In this document: positions 2,990-30,651 of the stretch, in pieces | Layout of the letters: each line of letters begins with the position of its first letter | How positions within the stretch are numbered: position 1 is the first letter of the stretch | Virus record (IMG/VR): IMGVR_UViG_3300048592_001388 | Location: 1 to 61,026 of that record | Length of the DNA: 61,026 bases | From: a virus | Lineage: Duplodnaviria; Caudoviricetes | Direction: 5' to 3' (one strand) | Translations under genes and position numbers: made by a program | Notes under the pieces: generated by a model | Seen by the model: the letters and a program-made list of their open reading frames with translations, nothing else | Databases searched by the model: none | Told to the model about the DNA's origin: nothing

Positions 2990-5533
2990 TCAATCTCGAG
3001 AAAGTCCTATCTGTACTTGCTGCGCCTCTACTAGAGCGGAAATCTCCGAATATAGATCAATCGTCTGTTCTGGCGCAGAAATCGAGATTACTAGTGAGTA
3101 GCGAGCTTTATCTGAAGCACGCCTTTGGCCTGCATGAGACTTCCACCATCCCCCAACTGGATAAATGGCAATTGCGTCATGCAGAGCAAGATCTGCTGCA
3201 TAGCCGCGCCACATATCGCAATGTAGAGATCCTGCCTGGATTGCCTTGAGGCCAAGCAGCCAATAGCTCTGCTCATGATCAGTGTGAGTGCCATCGTTCG
3301 GCTGACTCGACGATATTCGCCTCCTGAATCGTGCGTCCGTCTCTGCGCGCTTCTTCATTTCAAATCGCAGCCCAAATGAACGATATGTGTCCGGACGCGT
3401 AGCTGCCCGACCGGTGAGGTTGGGTTCTATGAAATAGGAGAGCGTCACCTTCATGGTGACAATCTCATTCTCCAACAATTCGAGAGCCGAAGTCGGCCAC
3501 GGGAGTTGATAAATGTGCATTTCATTGAATACGGCTGAGCCGCCCGTGCTTTGCGAATAGGGCTGTATCTCAGCCTGTGCAACAAGTGTTACATCGTTGC
3601 GCGCCGACATGACTGCACGCGAGAGTTCTGGAACTCCATAACCGACTTCTCTGAGCGCTTGTCTCATCTGAGCCTTGGATCCACTCTTCCAATGCGCTCC
3701 GCGCCCTATGAATTTCGTCCGGATTGGTCCAGGCCACCGGGCTGAATCCACAGTAAGGGCGCGGTGTGTTTCTGGCCAGAGATGGGGCAGTGCTGCCTGC
3801 AGTTGCCCGACGAAATTGCCGGCGACACCAACCGCCGCGCTTGTAGCCCAAAACGGAACCAAGGGATTTGAAACCGTGTCGGAACCGGTCGACAAGAGCG
3901 ATACGGCCGGATTCCAATCACAAAATCCGCTTTCATCGGCTAGCATATTCCCTGCTTCGAATAGCACTTCCGGCTTGATCGGCACCAAGTCGTCAGGGAG
4001 TGAGTGCGAGCCCCTACTAAATGGGCTGCGATGATTGGCGGCAACTGCGGGCGTTAGAGCCGGCGGTGGTGGCGGAGGTTGGTCTTTTCGGGTTATTCCT
4101 CCCACGGTCAAAGCGTTCCAGCTTTGCGACGGGTCTTCGAGGGGCTTGCACGGAAGAACATCTTCCATCATTCCTTCAAGCGAATTCCCTGTTGAAACCA
4201 CTATCAGGCGCTTGGGTCGTGCAGATGCAGGTATTGCTTCTTCGGCCTCAATCGGCATAGCCCCCGCAGCAATCTGGTCTAGCGCTCCGCTCCAGGTTGA
4301 GGGGCGATGTGGTGGAAAATCTGTTGTGGACACCGCCAGACAAAAGCTTCGGAGAACACCTGGTCGTTCTGACTCCACTGAGCTGATTGCTCCTTGTGTG
4401 ACAAGGCCATAGCTAGGTGGATCCGTCGCTGGAAAGCCCAACGGGGGAAGAAGCTTCATTGATTCAACGCCATGGGTGAGCTGAATCGCATTAGCTCCAT
4501 TCATCAGAGGCTCGAGATCACCATGCAATACTAACCCGGCCAAGGGGGTACCGTGACCTCCGTCGGCGTGGTGATCATCTGCGCCCCAGGCTGCGTCATA
4601 TGCCCATGCGCCACGCAATCCCGGTGAGATAAGTGGATGACCAGAGGATATTCCGGTATCAAGCGTGCAAACTACCGGAGAGTTCTCAGGCGGCGCCACC
4701 ACACGCGCGGAAAGTTCTGCAACCCACTCGTGCTGATTTACCCCCTGGCCTCCGCTAAGAAATATCTCGATGGTACCAGTGGCCTTCCGGACCTCCGTGA
4801 TGGCGCCAGGGATGAGCGCAGCAAATGAGGCGATGCGACCGGCAGACGAATGTAGAAAAATTACGGTAGTGTCCGGAAAGAACAGGCGGTCTGAATGCAC
4901 GTCTATGCCCTCTCCGACGGCAGCCGAAGTGATCCGATCCGCGAGAATGCGGGGTTGGCGAATCCATAGTTCCCACCAGCCAACTTCGGCGTTCGCAAGA
5001 TCTACATCGCCTGTGAACAGTGAAGAGAGGTTGACAGCCCGAACTTCTTCTATGACCTCAAACCGCTCGACATCTGGCCTTTGTTGATTTCCAGGGTTAC
5101 GACCGTAGTTCTCGATGCGCATACGCAAGTAGTCGCTGGCCTCGTCCGGAATGAAAAGAAGTGCACTTTCGGACCGATTTTCATTTCTCGTCGTGCGCAA
5201 CACAGATATTTCCTGTGCCGGAAAATCCAGATTGCTAGGAAGCTTCACGGCGGTCGCGCGCGAAGTCTCGGCCGGAGGCATTGTATGAACTTCAACTACT
5301 CGACCAAGCTTTATCCCCTCAATCAGTATGCGAGAGTCATCCTGCCCTGTAGGCCGAGCACTGAGTGCTTGCGCCAGCTGAACGAGTAAAGCCTCCGCGT
5401 GAGCGGCATAATCATCGCGTAGTGGTCTGCGTTCTTGTCTGCGGGAAGGGAATGTATAGTCGAGCTTCTCAACAAAGCGATCAATGGAAAGGTGGGGAAG
5501 GCGCCGTTCCCCGAAGCTGTCAGTTTCCGGCAT
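2990..5533 (-). CDS. ietS: S8 subtilisin-like serine peptidase, IetS-type
   Basis: 847 aa; catalytic-type motifs LDTG, GHGT, ATSAA, plus SPFSR and IKPEV; directly downstream of the AAA ATPase. Confidence 0.88.
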   Translation of the reverse strand: MPETDSFGERRLPHLSIDRFVEKLDYTFPSRRQERRPLRDDYAAHAEALLVQLAQALSARPTGQDDSRILIEGIKLGRVVEVHTMPPAETSRATAVKLPSNLDFPAQEISVLRTTRNENRSESALLFIPDEASDYLRMRIENYGRNPGNQQRPDVERFEVIEEVRAVNLSSLFTGDVDLANAEVGWWELWIRQPRILADRITSAAVGEGIDVHSDRLFFPDTTVIFLHSSAGRIASFAALIPGAITEVRKATGTIEIFLSGGQGVNQHEWVAELSARVVAPPENSPVVCTLDTGISSGHPLISPGLRGAWAYDAAWGADDHHADGGHGTPLAGLVLHGDLEPLMNGANAIQLTHGVESMKLLPPLGFPATDPPSYGLVTQGAISSVESERPGVLRSFCLAVSTTDFPPHRPSTWSGALDQIAAGAMPIEAEEAIPASARPKRLIVVSTGNSLEGMMEDVLPCKPLEDPSQSWNALTVGGITRKDQPPPPPPALTPAVAANHRSPFSRGSHSLPDDLVPIKPEVLFEAGNMLADESGFCDWNPAVSLLSTGSDTVSNPLVPFWATSAAVGVAGNFVGQLQAALPHLWPETHRALTVDSARWPGPIRTKFIGRGAHWKSGSKAQMRQALREVGYGVPELSRAVMSARNDVTLVAQAEIQPYSQSTGGSAVFNEMHIYQLPWPTSALELLENEIVTMKVTLSYFIEPNLTGRAATRPDTYRSFGLRFEMKKRAETDARFRRRISSSQPNDGTHTDHEQSYWLLGLKAIQAGSLHCDMWRGYAADLALHDAIAIYPVGGWWKSHAGQRRASDKARYSLVISISAPEQTIDLYSEISALVEAQQVQIGLSRD

Positions 5534-5583
5534 GTGATCCTGTCAGATGATAGGTCGCCTCTTTGGATGACATAGCAGTTTGC

Positions 5584-6594
5584 CTATCTAGTAGCTGAGT
5601 GCCGGAATTTGTCTTTCAGCGATTTACGATTTTGCAATGCCATGCGTAGAGCGTCGGCAGAGGCCCTTGATGCCCCCTCTATGATAGCATCTTTGATAAC
5701 TGCATCTGCTGCGCGCACCAGTTCTCCTTGACTTAACCCAATGAGGGTTGCCTCCAGATCGGGCCAGAATTTTGCGGCAAACTTGAATTGTCCCAGCCTT
5801 TTTTCGATGATTGCACGCGCCGCTGCCGCATCAGGCAATTGATATTCTATTACTTCATCAAAGCGTCGGGCCAAAGCTTCGTCCAGGATCTCAACATGAT
5901 TTGTTGCGGCCAGAACGAGGCTGTCAGTTGAATTGGGCTCTTCCATGAAAGCCAAAACCGAGTTTAGAACGCGCCGGATTTCACCTACGTCATTCGGATC
6001 ACCTCGGCGAGCACCAATTGCATCGAACTCGTCGAGTAGATAAACGCCGCGTGTTTGGGCAATTTGATCGAACAAGAGTCGGAGCTTTCCAGCAGTTTCG
6101 CCAAGGTAGCGACTGAAGAGAGCCTCCAAGCGAACGGTGAATAGCGGCAAGTGCAATTCGCCGGCCAGCGCTGAAGCTGTCATCGTCTTCCCTGTGCCGG
6201 GCAGACCCACAAGAAGCATATGGGTTGCCGGAGTTTGACCGTGTTCACGCAACGTAGCGCGCTGCTGTTGTTGACGGACAATCCGATTCAGGCGTTCTAC
6301 AATTTCTGCAGACAACACCATGTTTGTGAGTCGAACCTTTGGGTAGGTGCTTTCTACGAGACCCTGTAACTCACTTCGTGGCCGGGCAAGAGGAATCGGT
6401 GTCTGTCCACCTGCAACCTTGCCAAGTCGTCGTTGGTCTCTCGCCTTTTGGACCAACTTCTTGATCTTCTCTGCTTCCTCGGAGTGCCCTTGTCGCGCTT
6501 CCTGTGCCGCGATCTGCATAGCTAATGACAAAAGCTGATCTTCGTCTCCGTCGATATGCGAGTTGAGGAGCGCTAAAATATGCTTTGTCGACAT
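5584..6594 (-). CDS. ietA: AAA+ ATPase, IetA-type
   Basis: 336 aa; Walker A GLPGTGKT, Walker B LLDEFD, AATNH, LARRFD; N-terminus (QIAAQEARQGH) typical of S8-coupled ATPases. Confidence 0.9.
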   Translation of the reverse strand: MSTKHILALLNSHIDGDEDQLLSLAMQIAAQEARQGHSEEAEKIKKLVQKARDQRRLGKVAGGQTPIPLARPRSELQGLVESTYPKVRLTNMVLSAEIVERLNRIVRQQQQRATLREHGQTPATHMLLVGLPGTGKTMTASALAGELHLPLFTVRLEALFSRYLGETAGKLRLLFDQIAQTRGVYLLDEFDAIGARRGDPNDVGEIRRVLNSVLAFMEEPNSTDSLVLAATNHVEILDEALARRFDEVIEYQLPDAAAARAIIEKRLGQFKFAAKFWPDLEATLIGLSQGELVRAADAVIKDAIIEGASRASADALRMALQNRKSLKDKFRHSATR

Positions 6595-6689: not shown

Positions 6690-7118
6690 CTAATATTCCT
6701 GAACGACACTCATAGATCTATGGACGCCCAATAGGTTCCCCTCGTTCATCAACCTCGATTGTTCACTCCAAGACCTGCTGGCAGTTCCGATTAAGCCTTT
6801 CAATGAAACCGAAGATGGAAAACCCTCTATGAGCAGGCCGAGGACCTCAGGAGACAGGTAGGCCAGCCGCATGGTCCGACTGACAAACCGTTCTGTCACC
6901 CCCTCCAACTTTGCCAGATCGCCTGCCGTTGCGACGTCGCCGCTCTCCAGTCTCCGTCGCCATGCCCAGGCCCGTCCTAGTGCCTTGAGAATGTGTGGAT
7001 CTTGTGCACGCGCCTGCCGGGCGGCTACGTCTTCCGGTGGCAGGATCCTGGGGCGCCCGTTGCGGCGGCGGATTGCAAGCGGAATCACGATCCGAATAGT
7101 GTCGTTGGAACTGCTCAT
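6690..7118 (-). CDS. Recombinase-associated hypothetical protein with HTH-like segment
   Basis: IPLAIRRRNGRPRIL and ALGRAWAWRRRLESG..LAYLSP pattern, typical downstream of DUF2924-linked recombinases; 4-nt overlap with the recombinase. Confidence 0.75.
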   Translation of the reverse strand: MSSSNDTIRIVIPLAIRRRNGRPRILPPEDVAARQARAQDPHILKALGRAWAWRRRLESGDVATAGDLAKLEGVTERFVSRTMRLAYLSPEVLGLLIEGFPSSVSLKGLIGTASRSWSEQSRLMNEGNLLGVHRSMSVVQEY

Positions 7119-8443
7119 TCGGCCTCCTTGTTGGTGCTGACATTCAGGTCCCGGATGAGAGTAGCGATGCCATTATTGCGAAATTCCACGGCCATGCCGT
7201 TGGGGCCCACCGTGACCCTGTCGACGAGAAGCCGCACGATGCGCGCCTGCTCTGCCGGAAAGAGCGCTTCCCACAGGTCGTTGAAACGTCGTAGGGCCGC
7301 AATGATCGCGCGCTCATCCATGGGCAGGCCGTTGCGGCCCTGCGCCTCGATCACGCGGGCGGCGACCTCGGGTGCGCTGATGATGCGTCGCATCTCGGCG
7401 ACGACCGCACCCTCGACCATAGCGGCGGCAAGCCGCATGGGGCCCGCACCGCCCCCCGTGTCGCGATTCCGGATCAGGTCCATCGATGTGTAGTAGTGGT
7501 AGAGCCTCTCGCTCTTTCGCGTGTAGGTCGGGGTCATGGCGGCGCCGGTGTCTGTGAAGATGATACCCTTGAGCAGCGCCTCGGAGCTGTTCCGGTTCTT
7601 GGCGCGCCGCTCGCGCGGGCTCTCTTTCAGGTTGGTGTGAACGCGGTCCCACAAGTCCTGAGAGATGATGGCCTCGTGCTCGCCGGGATGGGATGTACCC
7701 TTGTGGACCGCCTCGCCCAAATAGACCCGGTTGTTGATGAGCTTGTAGATGAAGCCCTTGTCGATGCGATTGCCGCGCTTGTTGCGAACGTCCTCGGCTT
7801 GCAGGGCGCGCGCCAGTGTGGAGGCGGAGCCGAGAGCGGCGAAGCGCTCGAAGATCATCCACACCGTTGCCGCCTCCGCTGTGTTGACCACCAGCTTGCG
7901 GTCCTTCACGTCATAGCCCATCGGCACGAAGCCACCCATCCACATTCCGCGCCTACGCGACGCCGCGAACTTGTCGCGAATGCGTTCACCGATGACCTCG
8001 CGCTCGAACTGGGCAAAGCTGAGCAGGATGTTGAGGGTCAGCCGCCCCATAGAGGTGGTCGTATTGAATGACTGGGTGACGGACACGAAGGTGACGCTGT
8101 TGCGGTCGAAAACTTCGACCAGCTTTGCGAAATCCATCAGCGAGCGGGATAGGCGGTCGATCTTGTAGACGACAATGACATCAATGAGCCCTGCCTCGAT
8201 GTCGGCAAGCAGCTGCTTCAGCGCTGGGCGCTCCAGTGTGCCGCCGGAGAACCCACCGTCGTCATAGCGCTCGCGGATAGCAGCCCAGCCTTCCGCTCTC
8301 TGGCTGGCGACATAGGCTTCGCAGGCCTCCCGCTGGGCTTCGAGGGAGTTGAACTCCATGTCGAGGCCTTCCTCGGATGACTTGCGGGTGTAGATGGCAC
8401 AGCGGGAACGCTTCGGCATCGGGATCACGGATGGCTTGTTCAT
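7115..8443 (-). CDS. Large serine site-specific recombinase (integrase)
   Basis: CAIYTRKS, YDDGGFSGG, VYKIDRLSRS, FAQFERE. Start placed at MNKPS (8443), with an ATGA overlap with the upstream gene. Confidence 0.93.
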   Translation of the reverse strand: MNKPSVIPMPKRSRCAIYTRKSSEEGLDMEFNSLEAQREACEAYVASQRAEGWAAIRERYDDGGFSGGTLERPALKQLLADIEAGLIDVIVVYKIDRLSRSLMDFAKLVEVFDRNSVTFVSVTQSFNTTTSMGRLTLNILLSFAQFEREVIGERIRDKFAASRRRGMWMGGFVPMGYDVKDRKLVVNTAEAATVWMIFERFAALGSASTLARALQAEDVRNKRGNRIDKGFIYKLINNRVYLGEAVHKGTSHPGEHEAIISQDLWDRVHTNLKESPRERRAKNRNSSEALLKGIIFTDTGAAMTPTYTRKSERLYHYYTSMDLIRNRDTGGGAGPMRLAAAMVEGAVVAEMRRIISAPEVAARVIEAQGRNGLPMDERAIIAALRRFNDLWEALFPAEQARIVRLLVDRVTVGPNGMAVEFRNNGIATLIRDLNVSTNKEAE

Positions 8444-8955
8444 GCCCGGTTCCCTTTCTTGCCGCCCATGCCGAAGAAGCGAAATCCGTTCCAGCTCGTG
8501 CCCGTAATGGCCTTGGCGATGGCGGAGAGGGAACGGTACTTGCGGCCCTGCCATTCGTATCCGTCAGCCAACACCGTGACCGCATGTTCCACCCCGTCCC
8601 ACTCCCGCATGAGCCGCGTTCCGGGCATGGGATTTCTTGCATCAACCGACATGCTCTTTCGCGCGACCTTGCCTTCCGCCTCGTCGGCGAGAAGATCAAG
8701 CACGCGGCGGGTTTCGCGGCTCAGGCCGCCGTAGATCAGTTCCTGGATGCGATACCCGATCCGCAACTCCAGAAAGGCCCGCGCGTTGTTGGGAGCAGGC
8801 GTGCCAAACAGGGTCTCCCACTTGGCCTTTAGCTCATTCACCGACAGCCGCTGCGTCGCCGCTAGCTGGGCAAGCACGGCCCCGTCTGTGGCGGCATCCT
8901 CACCAGGTCGCGGCAGGGGTTGTGGCTTCGGTTTCGTCGCGGTCTTCATCATCAC
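8440..8955 (-). CDS. DUF2924 family protein
   Basis: YRIQELIYGGL, PGTRLMREWDG, SLSAIAKAITGTSWNGFRFFG; canonical position upstream of a serine recombinase. Confidence 0.9.
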   Translation of the reverse strand: MMMKTATKPKPQPLPRPGEDAATDGAVLAQLAATQRLSVNELKAKWETLFGTPAPNNARAFLELRIGYRIQELIYGGLSRETRRVLDLLADEAEGKVARKSMSVDARNPMPGTRLMREWDGVEHAVTVLADGYEWQGRKYRSLSAIAKAITGTSWNGFRFFGMGGKKGNRA

Positions 8956-9170
8956 CCTCCAACTCGGTTGCGAAGTTTGCGACGATGAACACCGCTCTTC
9001 AGGGGCGAGAAGTCGACCAAACTGTCTCGGGCAGCCGCAGATAAAGTGCTGGACTGTTGAGGCAGGATACGACGCAGGCCGGCGCTTAGAATCTGCGCCA
9101 GTTCATCGAGGCGCTCGGACGGCATCATGCGTTCCGGCGGGGTCCAGTTTGGGGGTGGTGCGCTGCTCAT
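8952..9170 (-). CDS. Small hypothetical protein of the recombinase cassette
   Basis: PERMMPSERLDELAQILSAGLRRI motif; overlaps the DUF2924 start; start inferred at MSSAP. Confidence 0.6.
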   Translation of the reverse strand: MSSAPPPNWTPPERMMPSERLDELAQILSAGLRRILPQQSSTLSAAARDSLVDFSPLKSGVHRRKLRNRVGG

Positions 9171-9317
9171 CAAGACCGTTTGCGTTTGATGTTGATGGGC
9201 AAGTGAAGCGCTGCGAAACGCCCCAAAGCAAGCTCGTTTCAGCGCATCGAAAACCGCAGGCAAACCTTCGAAATCGAGCGGGCTACTGTCGTGTGGATAA
9301 CCCGTGAGTCCCGGTCA

Positions 9318-9642: not shown

Positions 9643-11859
9643 TCACGGCGCTGCCGCGGGAGAGAAAGGTGTTCTGGCGAGCCATTCCCTGAGTTTGGTC
9701 CATCGCAGGCGGCCCGAGACGTTCTTCACCGCAATCGCCACGGCCTTGGCTTGCCCGACAATGACCACCAGCTTCTTGCCGCGTGTAATGCCGGTGTAGA
9801 TCAGGTTCCGCTGCAGCATGGCATAATGCTGGGTCATGACGGGGATGACCACGGCGGAGTATTCGGATCCCTGAGACTTGTGGATAGTCGCGGCATAGGC
9901 GGGCACGAGGGTGTCGAGTTCACCGAATCCGTAGGTGACGGCGCGGCCATCGAAAGTGGCGATCAGTTCTCCGGTGTCGAGGTCGACCGCATCGATGTAG
10001 CCGACATCGCCGTTATAGACCTCCTTTTCGTAGTCGTTTTCGATCTGCATGACCTTGTCGCCGGGCGCGAATGTCCAGCCGAAGCGCTCGACCTTCTGCT
10101 CCGTGGCCGGGTTGAGCGCCGCCTGAAGCTCGATGTTGAGCGAGCGGGCGCCTACGCCGCCCCGGTTCATGGGGCAGAGCACCTGCACATCGCGGATGGG
10201 ATCGAAGCCGAAGCGGTTGGGGATGCGGTTCTTCACAAGGTCCACGATCAAGGGAACGGCTGCCTCCGGGTCTGCCGCATTGACGAAGTAGAAGTCGCTC
10301 TCGCCCTCGGGCTTTGCGAGATCAGGTATCTGACCCTTGTTGATGCGGTGCGCGGCGGTGATGATGCGGCTCTCGGCGGCCTGACGGAACACCTCCGTCA
10401 GGCGCACCACCGGGATCGCCTCCGACTGGATGATGTCGGCCAGCACCTGGCCCGGGCCCACGGAGGGTAGCTGATCGATGTCGCCGACGACGAGCAGGGC
10501 GGAGCTGTCGGGCAATGCCTTGAGGAGGGCATGCATCAGGGGCACGTCCACCATGGAGGTCTCGTCGATGACCAGCAACTCGCAGTCGAGCGGGTTCTCG
10601 GCGTTGCGCTTGAAGCCGCCACCCTTCGGATCGACTTCCAGCAGGCGATGAATGGTCTTCGCCTCGAAGCCCGTGGCTTCGGTCATGCGCTTGGCGGCGC
10701 GGCCCGTTGGCGCGCAGAGCAGGAGGTTGACGCCCTTGGCGGCAAGAATGCGCAGGATAGAATTGACGATGGTGGTCTTGCCAACCCCTGGACCGCCAGT
10801 GATGACCAGCACCTTTGCCATCAGCGCTAGACGGATGGCGTCCTTCTGGCTCGGCGCGAGGCTGAGGTCCGTCTTCTGCTCGATCCATGGCATGGCCTTG
10901 TCGGGATCGATCCAGGCCCATGGCAGCTTGCCGCTGGCAAGTGTCTGCAGCCTCTCGGCAATGGCCTGTTCTGATTTGTAGAGGCCGGCAAGAAACACGC
11001 AGCGGGTTTCTCCGACCGCATCGGCGATAACGGTGCCCTCGGCAAGCTCGAGGTCCAGCGCCGTCTGGATGAGTTCATTCGGCACATCAAGCAGTTCGAC
11101 CGCCAGCGGTGCGAGTTCTTCGACCGGCAGGCCGCAGTGACCCTGGTCCATGGCTTCCGTCAGTGCATAGGAAATCCCCGCCCTGACACGGATCATCGCC
11201 GTCTTCTCGATCCCCAACTTCATGGCGATGGCGTCGGCCGTGCGGAACCCGATGCCTCGGATGTCGCGGGCCAGCCGGTAGGGATTGTCCGTCATCACCT
11301 GGATGGCGTCGGCGCCATAGGTCTTGTAGATCCGCACCGCGCGCGCCGTGCCGACGCCATGGCTGTGCAGGAACACCATGATCTCGCGCACCGCCTTCTG
11401 TTCCGCCCAGGCGGAAACGATCCGCTGGGCACGAACCGCGCCGATGCCGTCAATCTCCCGCAGGCGCTCAGGATTGGCTTCGATGATGTCGAAGACCTGC
11501 TCACCGAAGGCCTTTACCATCTTCTTCGCATAGACCGGGCCGATGCCGCGGATCATGCCGGAGGAGAGGTATTTCTCGATACCCTCCGCCGTGGTGGGCG
11601 GCGTGGTCTTGAGAAACCGCGCCTTGAACTGCAGCCCATGCGTCCGGTCGTTGAACCACTCTCCCGTTGCGGTGATCCATTCCCCCGCCGAAATCGCAGC
11701 GGAATGTCCCACCACCGTCACAAGATCACGCTGCCCGCGCGCCTTGACGCGCAGCACGCAGAAGCCGCTCTCTTCGTTGTGGAACGTCACGCGCTCCACA
11801 ATGCCCGCGAGCACATCCTGCGGTGCCTGCTGGGCCTGTGCGGTGGCGTTTCGGCTCAT
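9643..11859 (-). CDS. recD2: ATP-dependent RecD2-like SF1B DNA helicase
   Basis: N-terminal OB-like region, HhH GIGPV, Walker A TGGPGVGKTT, DETSM, GDIDQL, ATIHKSQGSE, YTGITRG. Start inferred at MSRNAT. Confidence 0.93.
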   Translation of the reverse strand: MSRNATAQAQQAPQDVLAGIVERVTFHNEESGFCVLRVKARGQRDLVTVVGHSAAISAGEWITATGEWFNDRTHGLQFKARFLKTTPPTTAEGIEKYLSSGMIRGIGPVYAKKMVKAFGEQVFDIIEANPERLREIDGIGAVRAQRIVSAWAEQKAVREIMVFLHSHGVGTARAVRIYKTYGADAIQVMTDNPYRLARDIRGIGFRTADAIAMKLGIEKTAMIRVRAGISYALTEAMDQGHCGLPVEELAPLAVELLDVPNELIQTALDLELAEGTVIADAVGETRCVFLAGLYKSEQAIAERLQTLASGKLPWAWIDPDKAMPWIEQKTDLSLAPSQKDAIRLALMAKVLVITGGPGVGKTTIVNSILRILAAKGVNLLLCAPTGRAAKRMTEATGFEAKTIHRLLEVDPKGGGFKRNAENPLDCELLVIDETSMVDVPLMHALLKALPDSSALLVVGDIDQLPSVGPGQVLADIIQSEAIPVVRLTEVFRQAAESRIITAAHRINKGQIPDLAKPEGESDFYFVNAADPEAAVPLIVDLVKNRIPNRFGFDPIRDVQVLCPMNRGGVGARSLNIELQAALNPATEQKVERFGWTFAPGDKVMQIENDYEKEVYNGDVGYIDAVDLDTGELIATFDGRAVTYGFGELDTLVPAYAATIHKSQGSEYSAVVIPVMTQHYAMLQRNLIYTGITRGKKLVVIVGQAKAVAIAVKNVSGRLRWTKLREWLARTPFSPAAAP

Positions 11860-12356
11860 TTGTTCCGTGCCCGCCAATCCCACGGCATCTCGAAAGTTCC
11901 CACCCATATGCCACGGCGGGCAAGGCGGGCTTCGTCTTCCTCGTCAATGTAATCGATTCCATACTTCCTAAACGCCACGGCCCAGCCCTGCGCGACCATC
12001 CAGGCATTGAGGTTGGTCTCGCCCTTGAAGCAGACGGCGATGGTGCGCTTGTAGCGGTCCCGTCCCTTTGGCTGGCACGAAACGGTGGACCGCCCGATCA
12101 TGTCGGCGAGTGCGAAGGCGGACTTCTGCCCGCAGCGATATCGATTGCCGGCGGCGTCGAGGCAAAGCTGCGAACTCTCCGGCGCGTCGATGGCATCAAG
12201 CCGGATCCGCTCGCCCCGGATCTCGATGGTGTCGCCGTCAATGACGGAGGCGGTGCCCTGAATGAGCGGCGCGGCCGAGGCTGCAGCCGCCATGAACAGA
12301 AGGCCAGCCATCAAACCGGCAGCGATCGCCATTTTCCGCATCACCTGTCGTGACAC
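11856..12356 (-). CDS. Thermonuclease (SNase) family protein with signal peptide
   Basis: Hydrophobic leader, then VIDGDT, IRLDAIDAPE, DRYKR, EARLARRGIW, PWDWR. Confidence 0.9.
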   Translation of the reverse strand: MSRQVMRKMAIAAGLMAGLLFMAAAASAAPLIQGTASVIDGDTIEIRGERIRLDAIDAPESSQLCLDAAGNRYRCGQKSAFALADMIGRSTVSCQPKGRDRYKRTIAVCFKGETNLNAWMVAQGWAVAFRKYGIDYIDEEDEARLARRGIWVGTFEMPWDWRARNK

Positions 12357-12553
12357 CCTTCATCCAACGGTGACATTGCCACCGTCTCCGCTTCCGCGAC
12401 CAAGGCAGTTTCGCACGGCATTATCCGGCTTGTCCCTGTTGCCGCACACCTGTGGAAAAATTCATCGCTCACGAATCTCAGTCGAATCATGCGGTTATCG
12501 AAGCCTCGGCGGTTCTCCGAGTGGCAGAGCGGGCCGAATCAAAATTCAGGGGA

Positions 12554-12588
12554 TTGACTCTGTGTGTACTGTAGAACAAATAGAGAAC
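12554..12588 (+). promoter_or_regulatory. Putative promoter with alphaproteobacterial LexA (SOS) box
   Basis: TTGACT at 12554-12559; GAACAAATAGAGAAC at 12574-12588 matches GAAC-N7-GAAC and covers the expected -10 region, about 65 nt upstream of the ATPase start. Confidence 0.75.
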
Positions 12589-12652
12589 GCAAGAGCCGCC
12601 CCGTGCGGCATGGTGAACAGCCACATCGGCGTTACATATGGGGGAGCAATCG

Positions 12653-14584
12653 ATGGACAAGTCGCCCGTGCGTGTTCCTGCGGCGCGCAAGCGCAAGGAT
12701 GGCAGCCATCACCCGCACCACCGCATCCTAAGCATCGAGGTGGCGGGAGGCTTTCTCGACGGTACGCGGCTCGAATTCAGCGACGGCCTCAACTGCATCA
12801 TTGGCGGCCGCGGGACGGGCAAGACGACGGTCCTCGAGTTCATCCGCTACATTCTCGGCATGATGCCGGACGTGAACGACAACCGGCCCCGCGCCAAGGC
12901 CATCGAGGGCCATGTGCGCGGCAATCTCGGCAGCGGGACCATCTATCTCGAGGTCGAGACCAAGCATGGGACGCGCTACCGGGCGGAGCGGCCGTGGGGA
13001 GACGACGTGCAGGTGCTCGATCGTGACGGTGAGCCGGTGCCTGTGTCCCTCGATCGCGATCTCGTGTTCAAGGCCGACATCTACAGCCAGAACGAGATCG
13101 AGGAGATCGCCACCACGCCGCGCTTCCAGCTTTCGCTGATCGACCGCTTCGCCGAGGAGGAAATCCGCGAGGTCGAAACAGAAATCGCGCGGGCGAAGCG
13201 CCAGGTCCAGGACAGTGCGGCGGAACTGCGCATGATCGAAGGCCGTATCCGCGAGGCTGAGGAGGTGGTCCCGGAAATCGATGTCGTCGGCAAACGGTTG
13301 CAGGAACTGCAGGTTGCCGACGGCGCCGATGCCGGGCTGATCAATGCAGCTCATTCGCACAAGGCGCTGCGGGGCCGCGAATCCGCAGCGCTTGGCGACC
13401 TTCGCCTCGCGATCAACGACGCCAGGGCCACTATGCGCCGCCAGGGCGAGTATGTCGCAGAAGCATGCTCCGCTCCCCTCATCGCCGATTTTCGGGAGGG
13501 CCCCAACGCGGCTCTGTTCGAGGAGGTCGAAAGCCTGATGGCCTCCTTCGTCGACACATACCGCGCAGAGGCGAAGCGGCTGGAGAACGCGGGACAGACC
13601 GTGCTGGAGCAACTCAGCGCCCTTTCCGAACAATTGGCCAGTGACCATGCGCGGCAGGAACAGGACTACCGCGAGCTCGTGGCGCAATCGGACGTCGAAC
13701 GCCAGCATGCCGCCGAGCGCGCCAGCCTGCAAAAGCGCCACCTGTTCCTGACGCGCGCACAGCATGATCTTGCCGGCCTTCGCCAGAAGCACAAAGCCAT
13801 GGAAGCCCGTCACCGCAAGCTGATGGGGGAATTCTCCGGCTTCCGCGACAAGCGCTTCGCACTGCGCAAGGAGGTCGCCGACCGCCTGTCACAGGACCTT
13901 TCACCCATGGTCCGGGTGACGGTGCGCCAGGCGGGCGACCGCAGCAGCTACGAAACCGTCCTCAAGGAGATGCTGAAGGGATGCGGGCTGCAATACATGC
14001 GCCCCGTGATGCGGATCGTGGAAACCGTGTCGCCCGAGGAGCTGTCGCGCCTCGTCCGCAAGGGTGACGCGGCACGCCTTGCGGAGGATGCCGGCATCGG
14101 CGAGGAGCAGGCCGGCCGGATCCTGTCCCACCTCAAGGCGTCCGATCAGCTTTCGGGTGTCGAGACCGTCGATCTCGAGGATGAACCTCTGATCGAACTA
14201 AAGGACGGCACCGACTATAAGAACTCGGCCGGGCTCTCGACGGGTCAGCGCTGTACCGTTATCCTGCCCATCCTTCTGCTGCAGAGCGAAAGGCCGCTGC
14301 TGATCGACCAGCCTGAGGACAATCTCGACAACGCCTTCGTCTATGACACCATCGTCCGCAATCTCCAGGAGGCGAAGGGCGGCCGGCAGCTGATCTTCGC
14401 CACGCACAATCCGAACATCCCGGTGCTGGGCGAAGCCGACAGAGTGTTCGTCTTCTCCTCTGACGGGCGCAGGGGCCGCGTGACGCATACTGGCCGCGTC
14501 GATGATGTGAAGGATCAGGTCGAGCATCTCCTCGAGGGTGGCAAGGAAGCCTTCGTGCTTCGCATGCAGCGCTATGGTCACTGA
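12653..14584 (+). CDS. SMC/Rad50-like coiled-coil ABC ATPase (resembles the TrlF/Ppl-type ATPase domain, no PHP domain)
   Basis: Walker A GGRGTGKT, Q-loop YSQNE, long coiled coil, signature LSTGQ, Walker B LLIDQPEDNLD, H-loop ATHN; RBS GGGGAG before ATG 12653. Confidence 0.88.
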   Translation: MDKSPVRVPAARKRKDGSHHPHHRILSIEVAGGFLDGTRLEFSDGLNCIIGGRGTGKTTVLEFIRYILGMMPDVNDNRPRAKAIEGHVRGNLGSGTIYLEVETKHGTRYRAERPWGDDVQVLDRDGEPVPVSLDRDLVFKADIYSQNEIEEIATTPRFQLSLIDRFAEEEIREVETEIARAKRQVQDSAAELRMIEGRIREAEEVVPEIDVVGKRLQELQVADGADAGLINAAHSHKALRGRESAALGDLRLAINDARATMRRQGEYVAEACSAPLIADFREGPNAALFEEVESLMASFVDTYRAEAKRLENAGQTVLEQLSALSEQLASDHARQEQDYRELVAQSDVERQHAAERASLQKRHLFLTRAQHDLAGLRQKHKAMEARHRKLMGEFSGFRDKRFALRKEVADRLSQDLSPMVRVTVRQAGDRSSYETVLKEMLKGCGLQYMRPVMRIVETVSPEELSRLVRKGDAARLAEDAGIGEEQAGRILSHLKASDQLSGVETVDLEDEPLIELKDGTDYKNSAGLSTGQRCTVILPILLLQSERPLLIDQPEDNLDNAFVYDTIVRNLQEAKGGRQLIFATHNPNIPVLGEADRVFVFSSDGRRGRVTHTGRVDDVKDQVEHLLEGGKEAFVLRMQRYGH

Positions 14585-14593
14585 GGTTCGGGC

Positions 14594-15712
14594 ATGGATA
14601 GCCTGGCGCTTCTGCCCGCCGCCGTCGAAGGCGGGGATTGGCAAGACATCCGAGAACTGGTCGAGCGCACCGGGGAAGGCCTTCGCCTGTCCTCCGTGTC
14701 GTCCTCACGCATCCCTGAACTTGCACAGCTGTTCCTGCGCCTGTCGCGCCACGAGAACTGGCAGGTCCGCAAGGCGGTCGCGCACGCAGCGCTGTACCTC
14801 CGTCACGACCTGTTTCACGGCATCATCGCCAATCTGATCGACGACGACAATCTCTGGGTCCGTGACATCGCCCGAAAGACGCTGGTCCGGCGCAGCGAAC
14901 TGTCGCGCGCTGAGGTCAGGGCGCAGGATCCCTTCGATGCCGACGCCGCCCTGCTGGACGAGATCGAGAACCGCTATGGCGTGAAGGCGAGGAGGAGCGT
15001 GGTGGCCGCCGCCAGCAAGCTTCATCACCGTTTCGTCAAGGAAGTCTATCACGAGATCATCCGGATCCTGTCCCCGCTCGATACTTGCCTCGTCAACCTG
15101 GAACGGGATCTGTCCGGCAAGCCGGGGCTGGAGCACGCGGCGGACCGCATCCGGCGCGGCCATCATCATGTCGGCCTGATCACCGAGGTCCTCGAGAATC
15201 TGCGGGAGTTCACCGACGGCAAGCCCGCCGAGACGACCCGGGAGTGTCTGTCCTCGATCCTGAAGGAGGCCGTTTCGCTCGCGCAGCAAGGCGCTGCGGT
15301 ACCGCAGCCGACTCTGATGTTCAGCTTGCTGCTGCCAGAGAGCCTGTTCATCTCGGGTCATCGCTCGCGGCTGCTGCAGGCCTTCATCAACATCATCACC
15401 AATGCCATGGAGGCCTGCGAGGCTTCCGACCGGCAGGGGCGCATTGCCGTGAGCATCGAGCGCCAGTCGGAAGACTTCGCGAGGGTGCTGATCACCGATA
15501 ATGGCTGCGGGATGAGCCGTGACGCCGTGCGCGACTGCGTCGACCTGTTCAGCTCCGGCAAGGTTAGTGGCATGGGCTTCGGTCTTCCCATCTCCCGGAA
15601 AGTCATCGAGCAGGACCACAGCGGAATCCTCGCCCTCGAGAGCAGTCCGGGCGAGGGCACTACCGTCACGGTTCTCTTGCCCATCGAGCGTCTGGAGATG
15701 GAAGCGTCATGA
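14594..15712 (+). CDS. Cytoplasmic HEAT-repeat histidine kinase
   Basis: HEAT-like repeats (ENWQVRKAVA, DDNLWVRDIA), H-box YHEI, N-box NIITNAMEA, G1 DNGCGM, G2 GMGFGL; no transmembrane segment. Confidence 0.87.
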   Translation: MDSLALLPAAVEGGDWQDIRELVERTGEGLRLSSVSSSRIPELAQLFLRLSRHENWQVRKAVAHAALYLRHDLFHGIIANLIDDDNLWVRDIARKTLVRRSELSRAEVRAQDPFDADAALLDEIENRYGVKARRSVVAAASKLHHRFVKEVYHEIIRILSPLDTCLVNLERDLSGKPGLEHAADRIRRGHHHVGLITEVLENLREFTDGKPAETTRECLSSILKEAVSLAQQGAAVPQPTLMFSLLLPESLFISGHRSRLLQAFINIITNAMEACEASDRQGRIAVSIERQSEDFARVLITDNGCGMSRDAVRDCVDLFSSGKVSGMGFGLPISRKVIEQDHSGILALESSPGEGTTVTVLLPIERLEMEAS

Positions 15713-16464
15713 GTAATCACAGAGCCCTCATCGTGGAAGACGAGCGGGACATGGCCGCTGAGATTGGCGATCTCCTGGGATCGATGGGGTACGACCATGT
15801 CGCAATTGATAATCTCGCCGATGGCCGACGCCTGCTCGATGGAGGTGAGTTCTGCTTCATTCTCCTCGATCTGCAGATCAAGGCCGAGAAGTTTTCGATC
15901 CGTCCGCGCGTCGAAGCTGGCATGACATTCCTGAGGGAGTTGCGCCAGAAACATCCGCGCCGCGGTGACAACGACATGCACCTTTTGCCCGTCATCGTTG
16001 TGAGCGGCCATGCCAAGGAGCACGAGGACATCGTGCGCGCATTCCAGGCGGGTGCAAACGACTTCGTGAGAAAGCCACTCGGGCAGTTCGGGCAAGACCT
16101 TTCCGCCAAGATCGAGGCGTGTCTGGATCGTTCCGGACGTCACAGCCATGCCGCGTGCTGTGCCAATGCTGATGATGTCCGGCCGGAATGTGTGGTGGAG
16201 AACATTACACACTCTTCCGATTATCGCGAAGTGTGGTTCAGGGGTGAGCTCTTCATGTTCGGCGAACTGCAGGCCAGGGTCATCCGCTATCTCCACGAGG
16301 CATGGAAGTCGGGCAGTCCATGGGTCTCTGGGAAAGCCATCCTGCGCCGCGTCGGGTCCGGGGACTCCGCAGCAAAGCTCGCCAATCTCTTCCGTCGCCA
16401 TCCGGCCTGGCAGAAGCTTCTGCTTTCCGATGGACGCGGGGGGTATCGGCTCGCGGACGGATGA
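15709..16464 (+). CDS. Response regulator: receiver domain plus C-terminal winged-helix-like domain
   Basis: LIVEDE, phospho-acceptor LLDL, VVSGH, FVRKP; C-terminal domain QARVIRYLHEA..GKAIL..SDGRGGYRL; ATGA overlap with the kinase. Confidence 0.87.
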   Translation: MSNHRALIVEDERDMAAEIGDLLGSMGYDHVAIDNLADGRRLLDGGEFCFILLDLQIKAEKFSIRPRVEAGMTFLRELRQKHPRRGDNDMHLLPVIVVSGHAKEHEDIVRAFQAGANDFVRKPLGQFGQDLSAKIEACLDRSGRHSHAACCANADDVRPECVVENITHSSDYREVWFRGELFMFGELQARVIRYLHEAWKSGSPWVSGKAILRRVGSGDSAAKLANLFRRHPAWQKLLLSDGRGGYRLADG

Positions 16465-16617
16465 CCGGAGCACTGCATCTCTGAAATTCGTTGTTGCGAC
16501 GTTGCGAATCGGCAGGCTGAGCGGCCTGCCGATCGCTTCATCGTGCTCGGGTTCCACATGGAGATCAGCGCGCTCTGCAAGCTGACGTGAAACTCTAGCG
16601 CAATATTGCGTAAATAC

Positions 16618-16681
16618 ATCCGCCGCCCATCCGCCGGCGATCCGCCGGTGAGCCGCCGCCGATCCGCCGCCCATCCCGCCG
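16618..16681 (+). repeat. Six tandem ATCCGCCG-type repeats with exact 11-bp period
   Basis: Units start at 16618, 16629, 16640, 16651 (AGCCGCCG), 16662 and 16673 (ATCCCGCCG); preceded by the palindrome CGCAATATTGCG at 16599-16610. Confidence 0.9.
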
Positions 16682-16744
16682 ACAGCACCGATGCGAGCTG
16701 CCATCATCGCCCCATGCTTCGGACGTGAAGCCAAGGAGAAAGCG

Positions 16745-17008
16745 ATGACGACGACCCACCTTTCCCAAACCGACCTCGCCAATCGCTGGCGCATGTCGCC
16801 GAGGACGCTCGAACGCTGGCGCTTCACCGGCGAGGGACCGCAGTTCATCAAGCTCGGCGGACGTGTCGTGTATCGCCTCGAGGACATCGAGGCTTTCGAA
16901 ATCCGCCAGATCCGGCAGTTTACCCCCGGCATTACGCGCGGCGCTCCTGAACCTGGCATACCTATGAAGAGCTTCGGCAACCGCGCTGCCGCAGGGCAGG
17001 GCAAGTGA
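16745..17008 (+). CDS. Excisionase/AlpA-like HTH DNA-binding protein
   Basis: LSQTDLANRWRMSPRTLERWR..GPQFIKLGGRVVYRLEDI; RBS AAGGAG. Confidence 0.88.
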   Translation: MTTTHLSQTDLANRWRMSPRTLERWRFTGEGPQFIKLGGRVVYRLEDIEAFEIRQIRQFTPGITRGAPEPGIPMKSFGNRAAAGQGK

Positions 17009-17451
17009 GATCCGCCATGCTCAATATTGCCAGCGATATGCCCCACTTCGTTAAAAGCCGTTCCCTGACGCCGAAGGAGGTCATGAATGACGTTGACCTT
17101 TGCGTCTGGGTGGCGGACGCAAAGCCCGGTGACCGGATCGTCTACTACACGGGCCATCTCAGTCGTGACCGCCTTCCGCACAACGATGGCTATTCCGAGC
17201 CCGTGCGCCGCAGGATCGGCGAGCTCGGCAATGCAGCTTGGATGCTGGGCGAGGAGAACTGGGTGCATCTGGTGCAGCGCCGCGTCTCCTACGGATGCTG
17301 GGATTACATCGCTGTCCGCAAGGCCGAAGCGCCGAAGCTGAAGCCGGTCTACCGCATCATCCAGTTGCTCGCCGCAAAAGGCGGGAAGGAGAAGAGGGGA
17401 TTGGCCAATGAGCCCGCCGCAACGGTGAACGCTACCGGGCCGCCGGCCTGA
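17005..17451 (+). CDS. Phage hypothetical protein
   Basis: WVADAKPGDRIVYYTGHL and VHLVQRR motifs; coupled within the early operon. Confidence 0.7.
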   Translation: MRSAMLNIASDMPHFVKSRSLTPKEVMNDVDLCVWVADAKPGDRIVYYTGHLSRDRLPHNDGYSEPVRRRIGELGNAAWMLGEENWVHLVQRRVSYGCWDYIAVRKAEAPKLKPVYRIIQLLAAKGGKEKRGLANEPAATVNATGPPA

Positions 17452-20815: not shown

Positions 20816-22542
20816 GCCTCCGTCCCTACCAGCAGGCCGCGATCGGTACGATCTACGCCTATTTCGAGGACCACAAGGGCAACCCGCTCATCGTGATCCC
20901 GACGGCCGGAGGCAAGAGCCTGGTGCTGGCTGCTTTCTCCGAGGGCGTCCTCAAGGCCTGGCCCGACCAGCGCATTCTCATCGTCACCCATGTGCGGGAG
21001 CTGATCGCCCAGAATCACGCTGAGATGATCGGATTGTGGCCCGAGGCACCGGCGGGAATCTACTCCGCCGGTCTCGGCAAACGCGAGGCGGATGCGCGCA
21101 TCCTCTTCGCTGGCATCCAGTCGGTACACCGCAAGGCTGTCGAGATCGGTCACTGCGATCTCGTGCTGATCGACGAGGCGCATCTGATCCCGGTCGCTTC
21201 CGCCACCATGTACCGCCGCTTCCTGGGCGAACTCACCGCCATCAACCCGAAGCTCAAGGTAATCGGCTTCACGGCGACGCCCTATCGGCTCGACAGCGGC
21301 ATGCTGCACGAGGGCGACGGGGCGCTGTTCACCGACATCGCCTACGAGGTCTCGGTCCGGGACTTGATTGACAGCGGCTACCTCTGTCCGCTGGTCAGCA
21401 AGCAGCCGAAGACAAAACTCGATGTTACCGGGGTCGGCAGCCGCGGCGGCGAGTTCATCGCCAGCGAGCTGCAGGCGGCGGTCGACAAGGAGGCGGTGAC
21501 AAAGGCCGCCGTAGCCGAGATCGTGGCCTGCGGTCAGGATCGCAAGTCGTGGCTCGCCTTCTGCTCCGGCGTCGATCACGCCCGCCATGTCGCCGAAGAA
21601 TTTCGCAGGCATGATATCAGCTGCGAAACGATCTTCGGCCATACCTCGAAGGACGAGCGCGACCGGATCATTGCCGCCTTCAAGCGGCAGGAGATTCGCG
21701 CACTTGCCTCCATGGGCGTGCTGACCACCGGCTTCAACGCCCCGGTGGTCGATCTTATCGCCATGCTGCGGCCGACCAAATCGGCCGGGCTCTACGTCCA
21801 GATGGCAGGCCGTGGCACGCGACTGGCGCCCGGCAAGCAGAACTGCCTTGTTCTCGACTTCGCCGGCAATGTCAGCCGCCATGGCCCCATTGACCTGGTA
21901 CGCCCGAAGCGGCCCGGCGAGGGTGGCGACGGCCTGGCGCCCACCAAGGTCTGCCCGGAGTGCGACAGCATCATTCCCCTCGCCGCCAGCGAATGTCCGG
22001 ACTGCGGCTTCGTCTTTCCGGCTCGGGAGGTGAAGATTGTCCCGACGGCGGCCACGCTGCCGGTGCTTTCGCCGAAGCACCCGCCGTGGCTTGCTGTGAA
22101 CGACGTCATGTACGTCCGGCACGAGAAGGCCGGCGGGCTGCCCTCGCTCAGGGTGACCTACCGCTGCGGGCTTTCCGCCTACAGCGAATGGGTCTGCTTC
22201 GAGCATTCCGGCTATGCGCGGCGCAAGGCCGAGGAGTGGTGGCAACTGCGCGCATCGGGAACGCCGTTCCCGCTCACCGTCGCGGAGGCGCTCGCCCGCA
22301 GGTCCGAGCTCAGGCGCCCATCCGCCATCATGGTCGAGACCGTCGGCCGTTTCTTCGAGGTCAAGCGCGCGAGGTTCAACGCATGTCCATCCCCGGCCTC
22401 TGCGCCGTCTGCCACCGGCAAGCCCGTCACCATGGCTGGTTCGATGCAGCCTTCCCCGCATCGGACCCCCGCCGCGACGCCAGCCGGAAACGGCTCTGCA
22501 GCCGGCTCTGCCAGGACATCTGTCACGGGAGGAAAGGCATGA
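20809..22542 (+). CDS. SF2 DEAH helicase (YejH/RadD-like) with zinc finger
   Basis: LRPYQ, PTAGGKS, DEAH, TAT, LTTGFN, QMAGRGTR, CPEC..CPDC. Confidence 0.92.
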   Translation: MLSLRPYQQAAIGTIYAYFEDHKGNPLIVIPTAGGKSLVLAAFSEGVLKAWPDQRILIVTHVRELIAQNHAEMIGLWPEAPAGIYSAGLGKREADARILFAGIQSVHRKAVEIGHCDLVLIDEAHLIPVASATMYRRFLGELTAINPKLKVIGFTATPYRLDSGMLHEGDGALFTDIAYEVSVRDLIDSGYLCPLVSKQPKTKLDVTGVGSRGGEFIASELQAAVDKEAVTKAAVAEIVACGQDRKSWLAFCSGVDHARHVAEEFRRHDISCETIFGHTSKDERDRIIAAFKRQEIRALASMGVLTTGFNAPVVDLIAMLRPTKSAGLYVQMAGRGTRLAPGKQNCLVLDFAGNVSRHGPIDLVRPKRPGEGGDGLAPTKVCPECDSIIPLAASECPDCGFVFPAREVKIVPTAATLPVLSPKHPPWLAVNDVMYVRHEKAGGLPSLRVTYRCGLSAYSEWVCFEHSGYARRKAEEWWQLRASGTPFPLTVAEALARRSELRRPSAIMVETVGRFFEVKRARFNACPSPASAPSATGKPVTMAGSMQPSPHRTPAATPAGNGSAAGSARTSVTGGKA

Positions 22543-30076: not shown

Positions 30077-30174
30077 GAGTTTGCTCCTTTGCTTCGGACC
30101 GGCGCGTGTCGCCAGTTCCTAGGAGCCCAAGCCCCGCGTCTGAGGCGGGGCGGAGGTGAGGGATGGCCGGGGCC

Positions 30175-30399: not shown

Positions 30400-30651
30400 G
30401 GCGGTCTCCTGTTGGAGCCATACATGCTTCATGTGCGCCGGAAGACAAGCGGAATGAACGATCATGATATTGCTTTATGAGCAGGCCAAGAGCCTGACAT
30501 GAACGGGGACCCTACCCGCCCCTGGGACGCGCGATGATGCCGATGGAACCTGATTCGAACGACGGCCGGAGACGCCTCTTGTTCCTGATCAGCTGACTGA
30601 TCAGCACCTGCACGGGAGGCGAGCTTCAGTCTGACGTCGTTCTCCGACGGC

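Follow-up and report, generated by a model that had tools for sequence, protein, structure and literature searches.

The stretch of viral DNA analysed here, 61,026 nucleotides in all and referred to below as the window, is an entire IMG/VR provirus record (IMGVR_UViG_3300048592_001388) that CheckV rates as complete. It is a myovirus-type provirus, with genes for terminase, portal, protease, capsid, sheath, tape-measure and baseplate proteins. Between a leftward arm that includes a serine recombinase and a rightward early operon lie three co-directional genes, encoding an ABC ATPase, a soluble histidine kinase and a response regulator, which together we call the trio. The evidence assembled below suggests that the trio may be a CI-less control module of the phage early operon, standing in place of a repressor cassette. 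The features of the locus are as follows.

12357–12652, no strand assigned: divergent intergenic region between the SNase gene (minus strand) and the ATPase gene (plus strand); presumed promoter region of the trio.
12653–14584 (alternative start 12638), plus strand: ABC ATPase with a coiled-coil insert, 643 residues; presumed sensor, related to TrlF and Ppl.
14594–15712, plus strand: soluble histidine kinase, 372 residues; HEAT-like repeat (about residues 3–109), dimerisation and histidine phosphotransfer (DHp) helices with H153, catalytic domain.
15709–16464, plus strand: OmpR/PhoB-type response regulator, 251 residues; receiver (1–141), linker, putative winged helix (166–250).
16508–16533, plus strand: hairpin, a perfect 10-nt inverted repeat with a 6-nt loop, after the regulator gene; candidate terminator or operator.
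16617–16681, plus strand: about six direct repeats of 11-bp period, core ATCCGCCG; presumed binding site of the regulator.
16745–17008, plus strand: HTH_17 gene (AlpA/excisionase-like), first of the rightward early genes; Pfam HTH_17, phrog_66, with an AAGGAGA ribosome-binding site.

The three genes are tightly coupled, as the initial annotation of this DNA had stated: the open reading frame (ORF) map gives a 9-nt gap between the first and second and a 4-nt ATGA overlap between the second and third. The ATPase, kinase and receiver motifs that it reported as intact are so by Pfam score and by invariance in alignments. In an alignment of 22 sequences the residues of the Walker A, Q-loop, signature, Walker B and H-loop motifs of the ATPase are invariant; in 56 kinase sequences H153 is invariant, and N270, D302/G304 and G328/G330 (the N, G1 and G2 boxes) are invariant or nearly so; and D54 of the receiver is nearly invariant.

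The trio recurs as a unit far beyond chance and is found in hundreds of genomes. A scan of species-representative genomes confirmed at least 585 relatives of the ATPase, and 80 genome loci were fetched for analysis of their neighbourhoods. The kinase gene follows the ATPase gene in 77 of the 80, and a regulator gene follows in 70 (tblastn), with three more regulators recovered by clustering; the gene order is kept in 73 loci, with variable flanks. Of the seven loci without the full trio, five are cut by contig ends, and two (L005, L008) lack the partners despite the presence of downstream DNA. The loci span at least eight phyla, with representatives from the Alphaproteobacteria, Magnetococcales, Myxococcota, Acidobacteriota, Planctomycetota, Verrucomicrobiota, Gemmatimonadota and Chloroflexota. 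None of their gene clusters is widely common apart from the three of the trio, the next largest cluster of neighbours, a serine recombinase, being present in 11 loci. Since genes at these loci were called with a crude ORF heuristic, which sometimes replaced the kinase by a false antisense ORF, the cluster counts understate presence. The initial annotation knew of no described system of this kind, and no published account of the trio, or of a phage two-component switch, was found in the part of the literature that was searched.

Some variants of the locus were seen in passing. One Myxococcales metagenome-assembled genome contains the trio four times, each copy on a contig of its own (L027, L028, L033, L035), and in three of these a family A DNA polymerase gene lies directly upstream on the opposite strand. 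In two verrucomicrobial loci a fourth gene, encoding a lone receiver domain, follows the regulator (L056, 11089–11436; L073, 10652–11068); it is reminiscent of the buffer receiver of Detocs.

Comparisons with phages that share the backbone of the window but lack the trio reveal what normally occupies this position. From 319 relatives, 80 provirus loci in which the AAA_24 protein is 83–100% identical to that of the window were taken as close backbone relatives, and none of the 80 carries the ATPase or the kinase. The slot, defined as the gap from the recombinase to HTH_17, is fully visible in 24 of them. Fifteen of these slots contain a leftward XRE gene with a Peptidase_M78 (ImmA/IrrE-like) gene and two rightward unknowns, P408 and P309, and the remaining nine a leftward CI-like repressor (HTH_3 plus Peptidase_S24) and a rightward unknown, P227; the trio is present in none. 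Because all 24 slots hold other cassettes, we conclude that the trio sits at the lysogeny-switch position of these phages and is mutually exclusive with the classical versions of the switch. Its placement by the initial annotation where a CI repressor would normally be is thus borne out by the 24 syntenic relatives, every one of which has a CI-S24 or an XRE plus ImmA-like cassette there.

The absence of a CI or S24 gene from the window, also noted at that stage, was checked in several ways. Among about 45 window ORFs scanned there was no HTH_3 or S24 match, and phmmer searches with CI-S24, XRE, ImmA-like, LexA-like and WYL queries returned nothing at E≤1 from stop-to-stop ORFs of at least 45 residues in the window. 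The trio-bearing loci (the window, L001–L016 and L082–L094) likewise give no match to the repressors found in the slots. A pair of minus-strand ORFs at 21576–22109 was considered as a candidate repressor pair and rejected, as it lies inside the 577-residue helicase gene of the plus strand.

The region also behaves as an exchangeable block. In the closest trio-bearing relative, L082, the segment corresponding to 12168–16940 (3′ end of the SNase gene, trio, array and HTH_17) is 88.6% identical to the window, compared with ∼75% for the replication genes, whereas L128 has an AAA_24 protein that is 91% identical and yet carries a different cassette. The trio, the array and HTH_17 thus travel as one, in the manner of immunity regions. 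By eye, the cassette in the slot of L128 is a fourth type, made up of an ImmA-like gene and an ECF-sigma-like gene. On one phage backbone (L126–L205), with the trio included, at least four interchangeable slot cassettes are therefore seen: XRE+M78/P408/P309, CI-S24/P227, ImmA-like plus ECF-sigma-like, and the trio.

By its modelled fold the regulator resembles DNA-binding regulators of the OmpR type. Its receiver matches Response_reg (PF00072) at 52.3 bits (cutoff 30.2); Trans_reg_C is not matched, and the C-terminal domain goes unnamed by Pfam. In the AlphaFold2 (AF2) model, which has a mean predicted local distance difference test score (pLDDT) of 83.4, the receiver and a linker are followed by a strand platform, three helices and a hairpin. 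The top Foldseek matches are full-length regulators of the OmpR/PhoB family, several of them bound to DNA, with ∼260 columns aligned to CosR, KdpE, MtrA and RpaA at E values of about 1e-9. An atlas look-up of the output domain returned unnamed clusters of small proteins and one Trans_reg_C cluster at 0.81, which serves as a lead only.

A closer relationship is found within the phages themselves. Residues 161–248 of the regulator are 42% identical over 88 residues to the C-terminus of P227 (E 4e-20), the rightward protein of the CI-S24 cassette, and are more weakly similar to P309, the equivalent protein of the XRE cassette. The regulator gene, and in trio-less relatives those of P227 and P309, each stand directly before HTH_17, which is conserved in trio-bearing and trio-less relatives alike. 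The regulator of L093, a trio locus at greater distance, has a domain of the P309 type, and across phyla the receiver is conserved while the C-terminal domain varies with lineage. P227, P309 and a further protein, P187, match no Pfam or PHROG family; P227 and P309 can be regarded as unnamed families with a common winged-helix-like C-terminal domain.

The DNA before HTH_17 carries a matching feature. In the window, Tandem Repeats Finder (TRF) gives a period of 11, 5.8 copies and a score of 72 for the array, with five copies in register at 11-nt spacing; a further 63 nt separate its end from the likely HTH_17 start at 16745. An 11-nt array is found by TRF in the same place in 22 of the 23 trio loci that have HTH_17, in 18 of them with at least 2.5 copies. 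Under a uniform threshold (period 9–13 nt, at least 2.5 copies), 22 of 85 trio loci have an array downstream of the regulator; the corresponding figures are 3 of 77 loci upstream of the ATPase and 6 of 130 for control windows. The 22 array loci are almost all alphaproteobacterial, the exceptions being L019, L038, L043 and L111; in L093 no tandem repeat was found. Trio-less relatives also have arrays at this position, and the repeat unit tracks the type of output domain, with ATCC(G/A/C) cores for the regulator and P227 (inverted in the P227 loci) and GCCTCCC for P309. The spacing between array and HTH_17 start is constrained.

The binding sites of OmpR/PhoB-family regulators are direct repeats in tandem, spaced by about one turn of the helix. 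On the match between fold, site architecture and co-variation of repeat with domain type, we assign the array to the regulator as its presumed binding site. The proposal that the regulator acts on the early operon is thus supported by the OmpR-type fold, by homology to early regulators resident in these phages and by the 11-bp array. The hairpin that lies between the regulator gene and the array folds as RNA with −31.7 kcal/mol (z −3.85); as it has no T-run and is not kept in most relatives, we regard it as weak evidence for either a terminator or an operator.

The kinase appears to lack a sensor of its own. Its catalytic domain matches HATPase_c (PF02518) at 73.5 bits (cutoff 26.4), and Pfam finds neither a PAS nor a HisKA match in the protein. 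In the AF2 model (pLDDT 87.9) six stacked N-terminal helices (residues 3–109) precede the DHp helices and the catalytic domain, H153 lies within a long helix spanning residues 130–173, and there is no membrane segment. The N-terminal repeat is HEAT-like by its modelled shape only, its Pfam HEAT score of 19.2 bits being below the cutoff of 23.5. The initial description of a kinase without transmembrane or PAS input, having only HEAT-like repeats, therefore holds in both the Pfam and the AF2 results, with the HEAT assignment itself sub-threshold.

Modelling provides a possible route by which a signal could reach the kinase. A complex of the ATPase with kinase residues 1–128 is predicted with an interface score (ipSAE, interaction prediction score from aligned errors) of 0.67, against 0.00 for the best of three controls; since our own alignments were used, the fact that 58 of 80 solved complexes and 2 of 110 mismatched pairs reach this mark is a rough guide only. 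At least 90% of the contacts agree between runs, and the pLDDT of the partner is at least 79. The predicted interface falls on ATPase residues 388–511 and includes the invariant or near-invariant S395, D399, F402, Q426, G428, R430 and E462; on the kinase side it involves the two most conserved motifs, KWEVRK and DxNxxVR. The HEAT domain is thus predicted to dock on a conserved patch of the ATPase, and the model, with its clean controls, supports such binding but falls short of showing it. The suggestion that signalling runs through the HEAT domain gains support to the same extent. The docking patch overlaps a weak HhH match at ATPase residues 453–495, so that DNA and the kinase might, speculatively, compete for it.

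Assignment of the ATPase to a family is less direct. The proteins form a tight family of about 640 residues, with Pfam matches above the cutoff of 27 to AAA_23 (41.1 bits) and AAA_21 (42.5 bits), whereas SMC_N, at 27 bits, is under its cutoff of 40. Against the NCBIfam TrlF family (NF045780) the ATPase scores 299.3 bits (E 9.5e-89), short of the cutoff of 350, and because the alignment covers only positions 284–944 of the 944-position profile it lacks the N-terminal part of TrlF. With Ppl (NF042955) it shares the C-terminal head only, at 117 bits against a cutoff of 1000. PADLOC gives partial matches to Ppl (E 7.8e-22, across residues 526–640), mad3 and LmuB (best E 8.8e-16), all anti-phage families; the kinase has no PADLOC match at all, the presence of Detocs models in that release being unconfirmed. 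A sequence search of the PDB returned only generic SMC and MalK heads, a collection of phage GenBank entries just seven weak matches, and homologues of 1127–3215 residues were not found, which is weak evidence. The earlier label of an SMC-like protein is better replaced by that of a Rad50/SbcC-type ABC ATPase which is related to TrlF and Ppl but without their N-terminal part.

Taken together, these observations lead us to a reading to which we give about even odds (a probability of roughly 0.5), namely that the trio is the control module of the early operon and replaces the repressor cassette found at this position in relatives. The cue, the role and the sign of the regulation are our inference. 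The ATPase, a Rad50/SbcC-type protein with no effector domain, would sense some cue linked to DNA, for instance damage, free ends or the phage genome's own state. The kinase, having no sensor, would dock through its HEAT-like repeat on the patch beside the C-terminal head of the ATPase, as the complex model predicts, and, given its intact histidine and catalytic motifs and the intact aspartate of the receiver, would phosphorylate the OmpR-type regulator. The regulator would then bind the 11-bp repeats and set expression of the early, excision and replication operon, a step suggested by its fold, its homology to resident early regulators and the co-variation of repeat and domain type. With the array ending 63 nt ahead of the start codon, the geometry is slightly more in keeping with PhoB-like activation. 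A broader and more tentative proposal is that the whole forms a CI-less switch: the ATPase would respond directly to DNA damage or to the condition of the phage genome and drive induction, through the kinase and the regulator, on an iteron-like operator. The ATPase–kinase pair would then be a portable module of mobile elements, with a lineage-specific winged helix as its output in phages from at least eight phyla and an enzyme resembling a kinase as its output on plasmids.

Several observations weigh against control of the early operon. The trio is co-directional with that operon and no repressor of its own promoter is evident, so that the upkeep of lysogeny without CI is left unexplained; the presumed promoter region, 12357–12652, contains no sigma-70 consensus site or repeat family that we could find, and no repeat array lies upstream of the window ATPase. 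Outside the alphaproteobacterial clade, tandem arrays are present in few loci only. The orientation of flanking genes is mixed (37 plus and 25 minus downstream; 34 minus and 22 plus upstream), and the downstream counts argue that there is no fixed target gene. In 26 of the 45 genome loci of at least 12 kb no window-like phage gene is nearby, such genes flanking the trio in the other 19 and, by our own count, in 30 of 44 viral loci. Candidate repressors do stand next to the trio elsewhere: a WYL/WCX gene in four Magnetococcales loci (L018, L021, L022, L026) and, by eye, a LexA-like gene in L025 and an XRE gene in L049. The only named relatives of the ATPase are anti-phage proteins, the immunity region of phages is also a known site for defence cargo, and the array could be a replication origin instead of an operator. 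The WYL/WCX genes, which are CapW/BrxR-like, lie upstream of the ATPase in prophage-like loci and are divergent from the trio in three of the four.

The association with early operons is itself found beyond the clade of the window, in either orientation, in Magnetococcales and Verrucomicrobiota, and in Myxococcales with DNA polymerase A upstream. In the Verrucomicrobiota, by eye, an HTH_17-like gene heads a divergent replication operon.

The alternative that carries most weight, which we nevertheless consider rather unlikely, is that the trio is stand-alone cargo for anti-phage defence or superinfection exclusion, in which the ATPase would detect invading DNA and the kinase–regulator pair would trigger protective transcription, possibly with suicide-like induction. 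The initial annotation had offered a defence or superinfection module as its second choice; the idea has gained some support and stays alive, ranked below control of the early operon. The best named matches of the ATPase, to Ppl, LmuB and mad3 in PADLOC and to TrlF and Ppl in NCBIfam, are all consistent with it, and on plasmids TrlF, there an 883-residue single protein, in one case directly follows brxL. It would also account for a compact, conserved operon with variable flanks and for its high turnover, the trio being present in 0 of 80 close backbone relatives. It is also favoured by the company kept in other phyla. When the two nearest ORFs of at least 90 residues were taken on each side (117 upstream and 106 downstream, the near-duplicate loci L003, L020 and L046 being dropped), the neighbours included ResIII (9), SMODS (5), WYL/WCX (4), N6_N4_Mtase (3), MmeI (2) and TIR_2 (2), as well as SAVED, patatin and AAA_13; type III and other restriction genes, the cyclase of CBASS (cyclic oligonucleotide-based anti-phage signalling), TIR genes and SNF2/ResIII helicases are thus well represented, a further point that tells against control of an early operon. 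In all four plasmid matches inspected (L206, L208, L209 and L210, from Shinella, Leclercia, Caballeronia and Phaeobacter) there is a sister trio, made up of an ATPase of ∼612 residues (29–33% identical), a short kinase-like protein annotated 'ATP-binding protein' and a third protein of ∼476 residues. The last is annotated 'response regulator' or 'phosphotransferase' and by eye combines a receiver with an aminoglycoside-kinase-like domain; the plasmid trios adjoin integrases, insertion sequences and VapBC pairs. The neighbour and plasmid data are consistent with a portable sensor pair whose outputs can be exchanged, and on their account the defence reading stays alive. Two-component systems with a defensive role, Detocs and Ambrosia, have been described. 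Against all this, the trio replaces the repressor cassette instead of standing beside one, its output domain is shared with the early regulator of the phages themselves and faces the early operon across a matching array, the kinase has no PADLOC match, and no effector is present in this clade.

If the 11-bp repeats were origin iterons, the phosphorylated regulator might silence or fire the replication origin, much as CtrA acts at the origin of Caulobacter. Direct repeats of one-turn period next to a replication module do resemble iterons, and in several phyla the trio repeatedly adjoins AAA_24, DUF669, helicase or DNA polymerase A genes. The array, however, always occupies the short gap before the HTH_17 start codon, with a constrained spacing typical of promoter control, and no initiator-type gene is linked to it; we consider origin control improbable. 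Least probable of all, to a degree that we hardly credit it, is a role as a moron, in which the trio would be a two-component system of lysogenic conversion, acting on host genes to the benefit of the host and having no part in phage development. Phages are known to carry signalling genes, and contigs from one RNA library (run X20) are 90–95% alike over parts of all three genes of a relative, a weak indication, as DNA carry-over could produce them; they give no cover over 16003–17100, which proves nothing. Such a role would not account for where the trio sits, for the output domain that it shares, for the array next to it or for its mutual exclusion with repressor cassettes, and the output domain changes with phage lineage.

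The genes on either side of the trio complete the picture of the locus. The left arm, entirely on the minus strand, contains the serine recombinase and its small partner, a gene for a 101-residue protein without assignment, RecD2 and an SNase, with the following named features.

7115–8554, minus strand: large serine recombinase, left of the trio, with a small partner gene beside it.
9643–11907, minus strand: RecD2, left of the trio; PADLOC match to typeIV_RecD (E 1e-67).
11856–12356, minus strand: SNase of secreted type, left of the trio.

RecD2 and the SNase were considered as parts of the system and dropped. The RecD2 stretch is missing from L082, the closest trio-bearing relative, and RecD2 is for this reason taken to be separate cargo. 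Beside the serine recombinase gene, at 8952–9263 on the minus strand, is a small conserved ORF with the motif SERLxELAxILAAGLxRL..., which is also present in the trio-bearing loci L002, L003, L006 and L010 and in the trio-less L139 and has no family match. The right arm, entirely on the plus strand, runs from HTH_17 through two unknowns to AAA_24, DUF669, a PD-(D/E)XK nuclease, the 577-residue helicase and a primase-polymerase.

Elsewhere in the window, a low-GC (0.54) pair of minus-strand genes at 2990–6594, encoding an AAA ATPase and an S8 peptidase, resembles the anti-phage system IetAS/IteAS; the IteA match scores 206 bits against a cutoff of 510, and that to IteS is weak. It adjoins a truncated type I HsdM gene (1–2391, minus strand), and the two together constitute a small defence island at the edge of the prophage or just outside it. 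Two phage DNA methyltransferase genes are present on the plus strand, at 27719–28978 and 41604–43166, one fused to a ParB-like domain and the other within the structural block. A lower-GC stretch at 29609–31016, between the replication and packaging modules, contains leftward genes that include one for a DUF3489 protein, the sole minus-strand genes inside the phage besides those of the left arm. No tRNA was found in the window.

In the prophage switches known so far a repressor is central, and it is removed by cleavage, put out of action by an antirepressor, or adjusted through peptide or quorum signals. Were the proposed relay real, a two-component system with a DNA-repair-type ATPase as its sensor would give viruses a novel means of sensing the condition of the host. 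The results also provide a testable lead to the cue sensed by ATPases of the TrlF/Ppl type. The immunity slot of one phage group accommodates at least four interchangeable cassettes with a common output domain and type of operator.

Of the systems to which the trio can be compared, TrlF and Ppl are the closest through the ATPase, which matches TrlF over its entire ATPase part and Ppl in the C-terminal head, both at scores below the family cutoffs. The first ∼283 positions of the TrlF profile, which are missing, correspond to a PHP phosphoesterase domain. TrlF and Ppl are single proteins, whereas the ATPase of the trio is partnered with a kinase–regulator pair. The partial LmuB matches that link the ATPase to Lamassu involve heads and parts only; the trio has neither the LmuA effector nor the LmuC partner, none of the proteins next to it matches Lamassu, and we do not assign it to that system.

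The signalling half of the trio invites comparison with defensive phosphorelays. Detocs combines a TPR kinase with a buffer receiver and a regulator that is fused to an enzymatic effector, whereas the regulator of the trio has, by Foldseek, a DNA-binding type of output instead. Detocs and Ambrosia resemble the trio in pairing a kinase with a receiver protein in a mobile or defence context, and the Ambrosia regulator also has a winged helix; neither is known to have an SMC-like ATPase, and Ambrosia includes a methylase and an HNH nuclease. A figure legend, part of the DefensePredictor paper, lists HATPase and REC domains.

With the OmpR/PhoB two-component systems the trio shares a canonical histidine kinase core, a receiver joined to a domain modelled as winged-helix-like and tandem direct repeats of 11-bp period, but its kinase is soluble with a HEAT-like input, and neither Trans_reg_C nor HisKA is matched. 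This family includes the Bce-type systems, where a kinase that has no sensor depends on a complex with an ABC ATPase. There the ATPase belongs to a transporter; that of the trio is instead of the coiled-coil Rad50/SbcC type.

A further comparison is with the CI/Cro and ImmR/ImmA switches of temperate phages and of integrative and conjugative elements. The trio occupies the same slot between integrase and early operon, as an exchangeable mosaic block, although no cassette of the CI or ImmR/ImmA type is found in the window. It differs from these switches in having no HTH_3 repressor and no S24 or M78 protease, and in being co-directional with the early genes. Where those systems respond through RecA-stimulated cleavage, the signal in the trio would be phosphotransfer from a kinase coupled to an ATPase.

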